IMG/VR virus record: IMGVR_UViG_3300045988_089718
Location: 1 to 64,000 of that record
Length of the DNA: 64,000 nucleotides
Source of the DNA: a virus
Direction: 5' to 3' (one strand)
Shown: one piece after another, positions 4,301 through 64,000 of the stretch
Position numbering within the stretch: position 1 is the first letter of the stretch
Layout: each line of letters begins with the position of its first letter
Made by a program: the position numbers and the translations under genes
The notes under the pieces: model-generated
The model's input: the letters and a program-made list of their open reading frames with translations, nothing else
What the model was told of the DNA's origin: nothing
The model's database searches: none

Positions 4301-4373
4301 GGTCCTGTAGCTCAGTGTATAGAGCAGGAATCTTCTAAATTCCGGGTCGTGAGTTAGATTCTCGCCAGGACCA
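4301..4373 (+). tRNA. tRNA-Arg (anticodon TCT)
   Basis: Cloverleaf folded by hand: acceptor GGTCCTG/CAGGACC, D arm TAGCTCAGTGTATAGAGC, anticodon stem GGAAT/ATTCC with loop CTTCTAA, T loop GTTAGATTC. Confidence 0.85.
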
Positions 4374-4378
4374 CATAT

Positions 4379-4459
4379 ACGGAGTTCGCTTAATGGTTAG
4401 GGCACCTCACTTCCACAATTCATAGAGAGGGTATATTGGTTCGAATCCTTTACTCCGTA
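4379..4459 (+). tRNA. tRNA-like gene, non-canonical (about 18-nt loop in the anticodon region)
   Basis: Acceptor ACGGAGT/ACTCCGT pairs perfectly; D arm GCTT-AATGGTTA-GGGC; T loop TTCGAAT. The only stem in the anticodon region is CCTC/GAGG enclosing 18 nt. Architecture shared with 4890-4970. Confidence 0.5.
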
Positions 4460-4889: not shown

Positions 4890-4970
4890 ACGGTAGTAGC
4901 TCAGTGGTTAGAACATCTCTTTATATAGGTCATTTCGAGATGGTCATTGGTTCGAATCCTTTCTACCGTA
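4890..4970 (+). tRNA. tRNA-like gene, non-canonical (about 17-nt loop in the anticodon region), paralog of 4379-4459
   Basis: Acceptor ACGGTAG/CTACCGT pairs perfectly; D arm GCTC-AGTGGTTA-GAAC; stem ATCTC/GAGAT encloses 17 nt; T arm ATTGG-TTCGAAT-CCTTT. Confidence 0.5.
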
Positions 4971-5214: not shown

Positions 5215-5287
5215 GGAGATATAGCTTAGAAGGTCAGAGCGCGGGACTGAAAATCCCGAGATTGTGGTTCGATTCCACGTGTCTCCA
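5215..5287 (+). tRNA. tRNA-Phe (anticodon GAA)
   Basis: Acceptor GGAGATA/TGTCTCC; anticodon stem CGGGA/TCCCG with loop CTGAAAA; T loop TTCGATT. Confidence 0.85.
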
Positions 5288-5291
5288 CTAT

Positions 5292-5381
5292 GTACGGATG
5301 CCTGAGTGGTCGAAAGGGTAGGTCTCCAAAACCTACAGAGACGAAAGTTGAACAACGTAGGTCCGAATCCTACTCCGTATG
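5292..5381 (+). tRNA. Type II (long variable arm) tRNA with apparent anticodon CCA
   Basis: Acceptor GTACGGA/TCCGTAT; 3-bp D stem; anticodon stem TAGGT/ACCTA with loop CTCCAAA; about 22-nt variable arm; T arm GTAGG-TCCGAAT-CCTAC (C at position 55). Confidence 0.6.
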
Positions 5382-5404
5382 CAAATAAATCAAATAAATA
5401 AAAT

Positions 5405-6019
5405 ATGGTAAATTGGGATAATGAAATTGAAAAGCTAAAAGACTATGTATTTACATAGAAACTTTCTTATGAAGAAATTGGTAGAATTTATAATTGTACT
5501 GGTGGCAACATAAAGAAAGTAATGCAGAGAAGAGGTATAGAATTACCTATTCGATCTAAAAATGCAGGAAAAGAACCTATTAATAAAGGTACTGGCAAAA
5601 AATGTTATTGTTTAAACTGTGGTAAAGATATTACAGATGCCAGAAATACTACCCATAAATATTGTTCTAATAAATGTCAACGTGAATATGAGTATAAACA
5701 ATGGGTTCAACAATATAAAGAAGATAACTCTATAGCTAAATCTACTAAATGGGGTTAGATACCTGGTCATTTAAGACATTATATATTTGATAAATTTGAT
5801 AACAAGTGTTGTATATGTGGTTGGTCAAAAATAAATCCCTACACAAATACAATTCCTTTAGAAATTGATCATATAGATGGAAATTCAGAAAATAACTCAG
5901 AAGATAACTTAAGATTAATATGTCCTAACTGTCATTCTCTAACCTCTACTTATAGAGGAGCTAATAGAGGTCAAGGAAGAAATATTACTTGGATTATTAA
6001 AGATAAATCTGCCCTCTAA
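5405..6019 (+). CDS. HNH homing-endonuclease-like protein; reading frame contains two in-frame TAG codons (5456-5458 and 5756-5758); either TAG-recoded or a pseudogene
   Basis: Single frame from ATG 5405: MVNWDNEIEKLKDYVFT-TAG-KLSYEEIGRIYNCTGGNIKKVMQRRGIELP...KSTKWG-TAG-IPGHLRHYIFDKFDNKCCICGWSKINP...EIDHIDGNSENNSEDNLRLICPNCH. The classic HNH motif (CxxC...HID..N...N...CxxCH) lies entirely downstream of the second TAG. Confidence 0.6.
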
Positions 6020-6133
6020 GCTTTAAGGTGAAGCACGAAACTTTTAATTTCGGGAAGACAGGTCAGTACTGTCAGGGGGTACTCCACATCTATTTTCGTT
6101 TTAGTCAAAATTTAAAATTAGACAAAAATCAAA

Positions 6134-24025: not shown

Positions 24026-24355
24026 GGGGATGTTTTGGTTTTGAACTTCGAGGAGATAAGGAACACAGCAAGACAGTTGGAGAGACAACAAAACAATAAT
24101 CGCTAGAGTTATTAATATGACTCCTGCTTATCAGGCTGCTGCCTGAGAAGCCGAGCAGCACTTGCTTAGGAACAGAAAGGTGCACTATTTTCCATTTCTT
24201 TTGTAAGTTCTCTGTATACTTTAGGAACAGAGTGGTGGAAGTTGGCAATGTTAATCTTGTCAACCCTAATAGACAAGGATAGTCTCTAAAACCTATGCTG
24301 TAAGAATGTTTTGATGCAAATCGGAGTGACAGGGGTTCGACTCCCCTCATCTCCA
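24026..24355 (+). ncRNA. ssrA: tmRNA-like gene (about 330 nt)
   Basis: 5' GGGGATG pairs with 3' CATCTCC, giving a tRNA-Ala-like acceptor with G3:U70. 3' T arm GGGG-TTCGACT-CCCC. Locally GC-rich with no ORF (the minus ORF 24003-24356 is spurious). Candidate tag frame GCT AGA GTT ... TAT CAG GCT GCT GCC TGA (ARVINMTPAYQAAA). Confidence 0.6.
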
Positions 24356-24445
24356 CTAGTTCATAGAACTGTTTTTATTATTTGTTTTTAATCCCTGGGC
24401 TATTATTATAGTTCAGGGATTTTTGTTTAATTTTAACTGTTAATT

Positions 24446-62999: not shown

Positions 63000-64000
63000 C
63001 ATAGGTTTCCTTGGAAATCTTTTCTAAAATATGTATACTTAAGTGTTAATAATTAATACTTAAGCTATGCATCAATTTAATCACAATTATTTTAAAACTA
63101 TTGATACAGAAGAAAAAGCTTATATCCTTGGTTTTCTGTATGCTGATGGCTATAACTCTGATAAGCAAGTAGTTATAGCCCAATTAGAACAAGATGTTGA
63201 TATTTTAGAAAAGATAAATAAAGCACTAGATGCAGATAATCAAATAAAAAGAAAATTACAGAGTACAAATAATAAAACTGTATGTCAATTATACTATAGT
63301 AGTATAGATATGTGTGCAGACTTAACTAATCTTGGATGTTTTAGAAATAAATCTTTAGCATGTACTTTTCCAACATTTCTAGATAAATCTCTAATTCGAC
63401 ATTTCATTAGAGGTTATTTTGATGGTGATGGATGTGTTTGGATAGGTAAAAGAAAAATAATGACTGTTAAAGATAAGACGAGACCAAGTGGATTTCGGGA
63501 GCGCATAGTTCAAAATGTTAAATTTACAATAACTGGTAATATGACATTTATTAATAGTTTACAAGATGAGTTAGTACAAATGTTGGGATTTAAGAAAACT
63601 AAACTTAATTTTAGCAAGGCTAAAAATGCTAATAATAGCACTTGTGATAAAGTTTGTACTATGGAGTATTCTGGCAGAAAACAGATGCAATCTTTTTATA
63701 ATTATATGTATGAAGGAGCTTCTATTTGGGGAAATAGAAAAAAATTAAAATTTGAAGAAATTTGTGCGTTTGAAGAGAAATCTTCAAAGGACACCTAGTT
63801 AATTGCTGGAACGCCTGAGATGGTAATCAGCAGCCAAGCCTCTAATATTGAGGAAGGTTCATCGACTATCCCTGAAATGGGAGTAGAATCAAGTGATTCG
63901 AAATGCTAGGCTCTTAACGACACGCAAGTGGGCGAAGATGAAGATATAGTCAGTTCTGTAGTTAAATGAAGCTACAGCGATAAAATTGGGACTAGAGTAA
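63000..64000 (+). mobile_element. Probable group I intron carrying a LAGLIDADG homing endonuclease, inserted in the metallophosphoesterase gene (3' boundary beyond the window)
   Basis: Gene interrupted at a catalytic motif; the intervening ORF is a homing endonuclease; 63799-64000 is non-coding, locally GC-rich and hairpin-rich. Confidence 0.55.
63067..63798 (+). CDS. LAGLIDADG homing endonuclease (two-motif, 243 aa)
   Basis: Motif 1 ILGFLYADGY and motif 2 IRGYFDGDGCVW. Confidence 0.8.
   Translation: MHQFNHNYFKTIDTEEKAYILGFLYADGYNSDKQVVIAQLEQDVDILEKINKALDADNQIKRKLQSTNNKTVCQLYYSSIDMCADLTNLGCFRNKSLACTFPTFLDKSLIRHFIRGYFDGDGCVWIGKRKIMTVKDKTRPSGFRERIVQNVKFTITGNMTFINSLQDELVQMLGFKKTKLNFSKAKNANNSTCDKVCTMEYSGRKQMQSFYNYMYEGASIWGNRKKLKFEEICAFEEKSSKDT

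Follow-up and report, generated by a model that had tools for sequence, protein, structure and literature searches.

Long variable arms are, in the textbook account, a property of tRNA-Leu, tRNA-Ser, bacterial tRNA-Tyr and tRNA-Sec. A tRNA that joins such a body to the anticodon of tryptophan falls outside this set, and the question it raises is which amino acid it brings to the ribosome. We analyzed a gene of this kind in a stretch of phage DNA of 64,000 nucleotides (hereafter the window; positions 1 to 64,000 of the IMG/VR record IMGVR_UViG_3300045988_089718). An initial annotation, based on hand folding, had correctly pointed out that a long-armed body with a Trp anticodon is abnormal, and had proposed that the tRNA might be mischarged, might serve as a decoding trick, or might owe its anticodon to a misassigned stem. 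All window features given below lie on the plus (+) strand.

The gene occupies positions 5292-5381 and comprises 90 nt including the discriminator G73, with support from ARAGORN, the Rfam tRNA model RF00005 and covariation. ARAGORN reports a tRNA-Trp(cca) at 5292-5382, while RF00005 matches at full length (model positions 1-71) with 50.9 bits against a gathering score of 29 (E = 7e-9), remains the best match after clan competition, and aligns to the same cloverleaf in the same register as the hand fold. The acceptor stem pairs GTACGGA (5292-5298) with TCCGTAT (5374-5380), followed by G73 at 5381, and it opens with a G1.U72 wobble where the family consensus is A1-U72. The D arm (5301-5317, from the Rfam alignment) is of class-II type, with a stem of 3 bp (CCT 5301-5303 / AGG 5315-5317), a G13.A22 mismatch and a loop of 9 nt, AGTGGTCGA, that contains A14, G15 and G18G19; the tRNA-Ser(gct) of this phage and phage tRNA-Cys(GCA) genes have D arms that are almost the same. 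The anticodon arm (5319-5335) consists of the stem TAGGT (5319-5323) / ACCTA (5331-5335) and the 7-nt loop CTCCAAA (5324-5330), in which the anticodon CCA (5326-5328), reading UGG, is flanked by U33 and A37. The variable region (positions 44-48 of the tRNA; 5336-5356) is 21 nt long and ends in the invariant C48, the partner of G15. The T arm (5357-5373) reads GTAGG / TCCGAAT / CCTAC and carries a C at 5363 (position 55) in place of the near-universal U55, giving a 7/5 acceptor/T-stem layout. No CCA end is encoded, the letters that follow the gene being CAAATAAA.

Every detail of the fold first proposed for the acceptor, D, anticodon and T arms is thus present in the sequence, and the variable arm, initially put at about 22 nt, is indeed long. 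The anticodon was likewise borne out: ARAGORN and Rfam both return CCA, and the different anticodon that software folding might have given did not appear. The worry about a misassigned anticodon stem could be laid aside, and with it that explanation of the locus, since the two programs and the covariation described below share one register. The minimum free energy fold of the single sequence has a z-score of -0.99, which is uninformative alone, so the test of whether the gene is real has to come from its relatives.

Relatives were collected through pattern scans of IMG/VR and of metagenome contigs, and the same tRNA(CCA) gene recurs in dozens of contigs from gut phages, 100-240 kb in length. 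The covariation alignment holds 25 distinct homologues and 23 helix pairs, comprising the cloverleaf and a small variable hairpin. Across these 25 variants 99.6% of the alignment cells are paired and 16 of the 23 pairs show compensatory changes on both sides, values matched by none of 500 shuffles; in shifted registers the paired fraction falls to 28-48%. Compensatory changes affect four of the five pairs of the anticodon stem and three of five in the T stem. Examples are G5:C68 to A:U together with U27:A43 to C:G (relatives L076 and L089), C4:G69 to A:U (L077), and a T stem in which GTGGG/CCTAC has become GCAAG/CTTGC (L081 and L088). No variation is seen in the anticodon loop or at G15, G18G19, C48 and G73. 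Because pairing is conserved and the pairs covary, the gene at 5292-5381 is a real, conserved phage tRNA gene under structural selection, and its CCA assignment stands.

The window copy is nevertheless not the commonest allele. The T loop TCCGAAT, singled out as unusual in the initial annotation, is present as described; it is a rare allele, found only in the window, in its identical copy L061 and in L001, and most relatives have the canonical TTCGAAT. Two features of the window allele, G1.U72 and U55C, are possibly weakening. Together with a very weak variable hairpin they lend something to the reading that the copy is a once-functional long-armed tRNA-Trp in the course of losing its function, and clear pseudogenes do occur among the relatives (L009 and L101, whose T arm is deleted, and the truncated L074). 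We regard such decay as very improbable. The window copy retains every one of the 23 helix pairs, along with the anticodon loop, G15, G18G19, C48 and G73; the same allele recurs in an independent assembly (L061); and G1.U72 occurs in 7 of the 25 family variants and, among the matches listed, in 33 of 104 long-armed CCA tRNAs of the wider phage class introduced below, frequencies that make it a normal state.

The amino acid that a tRNA receives is determined by a small number of identity elements. In bacteria, the Trp set consists of G73, A1-U72, G5-C68 and the anticodon C34 C35 A36 (PMC9976931), and A/G1:U72 with G73 has been used elsewhere as a working Trp criterion (PMC8629427). In the 25 variants CCA and G73 are invariant, G5-C68 is found in 21, including the window tRNA, and the 1:72 pair is A-U in 18 and G.U (as in the window) in 7, never G-C. 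The secondary Trp determinants G2-C71, G3-C70, G4-C69 and A9, known from B. subtilis and E. coli, are absent from the window tRNA, which has U2-A71, A3-U70, C4-G69 and G9 instead, and its 21-nt variable region and class-II-type D arm depart from the class I shape of bacterial tRNA-Trp. For serine, G1-C72 and G2-C71 are absolutely conserved in most bacterial tRNA-Ser (PMC9976931); both pairs are missing from 25/25 variants and present in 13/13 Ser tRNAs with the same D arm, and the anticodon is CCA rather than a serine anticodon (NGA/GCU). Judged by these rules, which derive from E. coli and B. subtilis and not from Bacteroidota hosts, the identity-element analysis recommended at the outset returns an acceptor end that is Trp-like (A/G1:U72, G73, G5-C68) and not Ser-like.

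An internal comparison was obtained by grouping, according to anticodon, the distinct tRNAs that carry this same class-II-type D arm. The Ser tRNAs have G1:C72, G2:C71 and G73 (13/13), the Cys (GCA) tRNAs G1:C72 and U73 (8/8), the Thr (UGU) tRNAs G1:C72, C2:G71 and U73 (2/2), and the Tyr tRNAs A73 (2/2), while those with CCA have A/G1:U72 and G73 in 24 of 27 cases. The three exceptions are L047 and L075, which have Ser-like bodies, and L076, where ARAGORN places the start one base early. On a single D-arm scaffold, the marks at the acceptor end thus go with the anticodon, which is our strongest argument concerning identity. G73 acts as an anti-determinant towards LeuRS and TyrRS alike (PMC9976931), which makes charging by either enzyme unlikely. 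Three other assignments were considered and rejected: cysteine charging, given G73 and C34 here against U73 and G34 in the Cys tRNAs; a tRNA-Sec, allo-tRNA or selC* tRNA, given a 7/5 layout where 8/5, 8/4 or 9/3 would be expected, and a D arm (3-bp stem, 9-nt loop) that lacks the long stem and tetraloop of the Sec type; and a body borrowed from Ser, Leu or Tyr, given that the nearest sampled relatives are long-armed phage tRNA-Cys(GCA) and tRNA-Trp. Taken on these marks, the tRNA at 5292-5381 most likely carries tryptophan.

The most direct challenge to this assignment is a mistranslating or dual-identity tRNA, in which SerRS would load serine through the long variable region and G73, so that UGG would be read partly as Ser, either as a weapon or as a source of proteome diversity. 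For SerRS the anticodon does not matter; recognition depends chiefly on the variable arm, and G73 is a Ser determinant (PMC9976931). The window D arm is close to that of the tRNA-Ser(gct) encoded by the phage itself; nev-tRNAs (PMC3333845) and allo-tRNAs (PMC5389517) are precedents for class-II tRNAs whose anticodon is non-cognate; and truly Ser-bodied tRNAs with CCA exist in L047 and L075. As G73 and a long variable region are serine determinants too, some serylation may occur. The mistranslating or dual-identity reading is nevertheless very improbable: the serine pairs 1:72 and 2:71 are lacking throughout the family, and C2-G71, which is a reported SerRS anti-determinant (PMC9976931), is found in many members of the wider long-armed CCA class. 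The putative handle itself is poor, for the sole hairpin of the variable region, described below, is barely stable at 3 bp, and a 7-nt deletion within the region is tolerated in L005, L006, L067 and L069, both of which fit badly with an arm read by SerRS. Finally, UGG falls at conserved Trp positions of phage proteins, so serine inserted there would harm the phage's own products.

The two Ser-bodied tRNAs are of interest in their own right. L047 (7828-7914, a Dehalococcoidia MAG) and L075 (10852-10941, a soil contig) combine a true tRNA-Ser body (G1-C72, G2-C71, G73, a variable stem of 5-6 bp) with the anticodon CCA, and may be better candidates for UGG-to-Ser mistranslation than the window tRNA, or else mutated or misassembled Ser(CGA) genes. 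L047 was also the one real tRNA recovered when a narrow, D-arm-specific pattern was run over 185,579 species genomes, the other 14 matches being due to chance.

How UGG is used by the phage was read from its proteins. The window has a G+C content of 30% and carries nearly all of its long ORFs on the plus strand; a Pfam search of the 20 largest ORFs identified NrdD, NAMPT, helicases and homing endonucleases, and one helicase has distant matches in crAss-like phages. In NAMPT, five of seven Trp residues align with Trp in a solved homologue, and in NrdD two conserved Trp residues match, from which UGG reads as Trp in this phage; reassignment of UGG, considered as an explanation, was discarded on the same grounds. 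In the window TGA terminates 19 long ORFs, and in no case does it lie between two long segments of the same frame. It behaves there as an ordinary stop, and accordingly neither TGA recoding nor a Hirsh-type tRNA-Trp that reads UGA was retained as an explanation. Nor does the gene resemble a suppressor, since CCA reads UGG and the in-frame stop that is seen is TAG, not TGA. With Trp marks present, the Ser pairs G1-C72/G2-C71 absent, UGG meaning Trp and TGA not recoded within the window, neither the mischarging idea nor the proposed decoding trick is supported.

The in-frame TAG codons occur in an ORF for an HNH-type homing endonuclease (5405-6019) directly downstream of tRNA(CCA), at 5456-5458 and 5756-5758; this ORF has no start codon before the HNH domain. 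Relatives encode a tRNA(CTA) (L004 1260-1332, L076 1092-1165), and the two observations together suggest that the phage is probably TAG-recoded. The source is a large (about 180 kb), AT-rich and probably TAG-recoded human-gut phage, whose host we infer from the gut origin and from short matches to Prevotella and Bacteroides phage tRNA genes. A LAGLIDADG-type homing endonuclease ORF lies at 63067-63798 and, with the HNH ORF, shows that mobile endonucleases are scattered across this early region.

According to ARAGORN and Rfam, the window encodes about 16 tRNA or tRNA-like genes and one tmRNA, the latter at 24026-24356 with the tag peptide ARVINMTPAYQAAA (ARAGORN). No other tRNA-Trp was found by ARAGORN in the window, and the Pfam search of the 20 largest ORFs returned no aminoacyl-tRNA synthetase, TrpRS and SerRS included, which makes the host TrpRS the likely charging enzyme. 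A tRNA-Phe(gaa) called by ARAGORN (5215-5288) ends 3 nt before tRNA(CCA); the spacing is 3-4 nt in nearly every complete copy of the pair and about 40 nt in L011 and L014. This conserved tandem suggests that the two genes are probably co-transcribed; a scan for promoters and terminators around the tRNA cluster gave hits that were not above those in shuffled sequence. Several neighbors are themselves irregular. Two tRNA-like genes at 4379-4459 and 4890-4970 (Rfam tRNA scores of 40.4 and 42.6 bits) have good acceptor and D arms together with an "anticodon loop" of 17-18 nt and U.U mismatches in the T stem. ARAGORN calls their relatives inconsistently, as '???' (ta), Stop (tta), Tyr (ata) and, in L061, Trp (cca), and insertions and deletions in the loop separate even close relatives. 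Pseudo-tRNAs, decoys resembling tRNAs, or tRNAs that have gained a short insertion are all candidate readings. At 6011-6081 Rfam (39 bits) detects a tRNA-Lys(UUU)-like gene that ARAGORN does not call in the window; its T loop (TCAGTAC) is odd, and its copies in relatives are called tRNA-Lys.

The variable region of the window tRNA contains a single hairpin, GAC-GAAA-GTT (5340-5349), of 3 bp with a GNRA loop and a 7-nt tail on its 3' side. Its free energy is marginal (-0.2 kcal/mol); all three of its pairs covary, as in L102, where GAC/GUU has become GGC/GCU. Other long-armed phage tRNA-Trp commonly carry GAC-GAAA-GTC, of which it is a weakened variant.

To delimit this wider class, IMG/VR was scanned independently of the D arm for CTCCAAA followed after 19-31 nt by GGTTCGAATCC, which gave at least 120 matches; the class sample consists of tRNA(CCA) genes of at least 79 nt by ARAGORN in 152 loci, drawn from the matches listed and from other loci gathered. 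It contains at least 104 distinct genes, at least 82 of them outside the window family. Among the matches listed, 84 of 104 long-armed CCA tRNAs have A/G1:U72 with G73, 98 of 104 have G73, and the loop CTCCAAA is invariant in all 84 that bear the Trp acceptor marks. Outside the window family, again among the matches listed, a variable hairpin is predicted in 75 of 82 genes, mostly of 3-5 bp, and 44 of these 75 hairpins are capped by a GNRA loop, most often GAAA. The class extends to cultured phages: in the Caulobacter phage CcrColossus, an annotated 86-nt tRNA-Trp (JX100810.1, 59240-59325) has A1-U72, G73 and the variable hairpin GGC-GCAA-GCC, and a form of 82 nt is present in Brevundimonas jumbo phages. 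In the paper on the CcrColossus genome the tRNAs are listed and the long-armed architecture goes unremarked (PMC3556154), and a full-text literature search of incomplete coverage found no description of a long-armed tRNA-Trp. The class is therefore widespread in phages, annotated in GenBank and, apparently, undiscussed. The first judgment that this is not a normal bacterial tRNA holds for its shape, which is abnormal for a Trp anticodon; the design is common in phage genomes. The long variable region of the window tRNA is most likely a lineage feature of this large class of phage tRNA-Trp and not a serine identity handle.

Compensatory changes that preserve the variable hairpin, together with its stable tetraloops, suggest selection, and possibilities for its role include folding stability, escape from tRNA-cleaving defences and recognition by a phage factor. 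From here one can argue that decoding is not the main role at all, and that the gene is a decoy or replacement directed against a host tRNA-targeting nuclease, or a tRNA that the phage distinguishes from the host tRNA-Trp, with the arm as the selected feature. The compensated, often GNRA-capped hairpins would fit this proposal, as would the adjacent canonical and long-armed tRNA-Trp of L092, L162 and L163; passages in PMC11555353 and PMC13096335 describe phage tRNAs as countering tRNA-cleaving defences and some such defences as cutting the variable loop. We nonetheless hold a mainly non-decoding role to be improbable, as the features for decoding and identity are conserved in their entirety and ordinary translation is the simpler account, no nuclease, defence or anti-defence gene is linked to tRNA(CCA) here, and the arm is degenerate and partly deletable in the window family. 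A related speculation, unlikely in our estimate though deserving somewhat more weight, leaves decoding in place: the GNRA-capped hairpin might be a selected mark that separates the phage tRNA-Trp from that of the host, with the same mark on long-armed Cys, Arg and Thr tRNAs, allowing the tRNA to evade host tRNA-cleaving defences, or to survive when the phage attacks host tRNAs, its correct charging by the host synthetase being unaffected. If this were true, the class II shape would be a recurrent phage strategy and not the property of three amino acids.

Other long-armed phage tRNAs bear on how such genes arise. The nearest non-CCA relatives in our sample are long-armed tRNA-Cys(GCA), and with Cys and Trp anticodons one base apart, a Cys-to-Trp switch, or the reverse, would be a plausible origin. 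Canonical-length and long-armed tRNA-Trp(CCA) also stand side by side in L092 (1194-1360), L162 (4444-4604) and L163 (5128-5290), the short copy of L092 having a poor anticodon stem, an arrangement consistent with a duplication after which the variable loop expanded. Descent from a long-armed tRNA-Cys and descent from a duplicated canonical tRNA-Trp are both compatible with the data.

The phage tRNA-Cys(GCA) genes, of 81-89 nt, were found in L017 (1495-1575, Prevotella phage Lak-A1), L020, L021, L022, L026, L030 and L036. Their acceptor ends bear G1-C72 and U73, their D arm is that of the window tRNA, and their variable regions, 11-19 nt long, form clear hairpins in several cases. Relatives of the window phage (L001 4108-4193; L005, L013, L016) encode a tRNA-Arg(UCU) of 85-86 nt with a GGC/GCC variable hairpin, A20 and A73, which takes the place held in the window (4301-4374) by an unrelated tRNA-Arg(UCU) of 74 nt. 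A long-armed tRNA-Thr(UGU) of 81-90 nt with G1-C72, C2-G71 and U73 occurs in L019 and L028. The 435-kb phage contig L025 carries a long-armed amber suppressor tRNA(CTA) with A73 that looks Tyr- or Leu-derived, so that TAG there would be something other than Gln. At the level of ARAGORN calls, unusually long phage tRNAs for Asn, Val, Ile and Pro are also seen. The occurrence of long-armed Trp, Cys, Arg and Thr tRNAs in phages makes long arms on class I isotypes a recurrent phage trait, and in each of these four cases the acceptor-end identity marks agree with the anticodon.

Taking these lines together, we put a probability of roughly three in four on the reading that 5292-5381 encodes a working tryptophan tRNA, charged with Trp and reading UGG, on a class-II-like scaffold (3-bp D stem, large D loop, G15-C48 pair, long variable region). 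The gene, its fold, its conservation and covariation, its identity marks, the meaning of UGG and the breadth of the class are observed here, whereas expression, processing, TrpRS charging and any role of the arm are what we infer. The tRNA would be transcribed together with the tRNA-Phe that lies 3 nt upstream, and the transcript trimmed and given a CCA end, which has to be added because none is encoded. A host bacterial-type TrpRS would then charge it with tryptophan by reading C34-C35-A36, G73 and the weak 1:72 pair, and the charged tRNA would decode UGG as Trp in phage proteins. Taken alone, the window gene is a modest case, an unusual body put to an ordinary use, in a somewhat degenerate allele, and the wider class is of more interest. 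It indicates that tRNA shape and amino-acid identity are separable in nature without mistranslation, that annotators should not take such genes as mischarging or as errors, and it raises the question of what retains the arm in phages, the candidates being stability, nuclease escape and recognition by a phage factor.

Compared with known systems, the window tRNA shares with canonical bacterial tRNA-Trp (class I, about 74-77 nt) the CUCCAAA loop, G73, a weak 1:72 pair, G5-C68 and the 7/5 acceptor/T layout. It differs in its 21-nt variable region (about 5 nt in the canonical form), its 3-bp D stem, its enlarged D loop and the lack of the secondary determinants G2-C71, G3-C70, G4-C69 and A9. With bacterial class II tRNAs for Ser, Leu and Tyr it has in common a long variable region, a 3-bp D stem, a 13:22 mismatch and a large D loop, and with tRNA-Ser also G73; unlike them it has the anticodon CCA and lacks G1-C72/G2-C71 (Ser) and A73 (Leu, Tyr), and its variable stem falls well short, in both length and strength, of the 5-bp stem that the tRNA-Ser(gct) of the phage carries. 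The nev-tRNAs (PMC3333845), allo-tRNAs and selC* tRNA-Cys (PMC5389517) likewise join a long arm to an anticodon beyond the Leu/Ser set. However, nev-tRNAs (PMC3333845) and allo-tRNAs (PMC5389517) have Leu or Ser identity and mistranslate or suppress, and allo-tRNAs and selC* tRNAs have 8/4 or 9/3 acceptor/T layouts (PMC5389517), whereas the window tRNA has a 7/5 layout and identity marks that agree with its anticodon. Also comparable are the long-armed phage tRNA-Cys(GCA) (L017 of Lak-A1; L020, L021, L026, L030, L036), whose D arm (GCCTGAGTGGTCGAA) is nearly the same and whose layout is 7/5, unlike the published selC* tRNA-Cys. The T stem GTGGG/CCTAC is common to both groups, their anticodons are one base apart, and the variable-arm sequence CAGAGAAATCTC is common to the Cys tRNA of L021 and the Trp tRNA of L095; the Cys versions bear G1-C72 and U73, the Cys marks, and the CCA versions A/G1:U72 and G73. 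The design recurs in CcrColossus and the other long-armed phage tRNA(CCA), which share CCA, A1-U72 or G1.U72, G73, the class-II-type D arm and a GNRA-capped hairpin, and from which the window family is set apart by its weaker hairpin (GAC/GUU) and 7-nt 3' tail, and the window allele by U55C.
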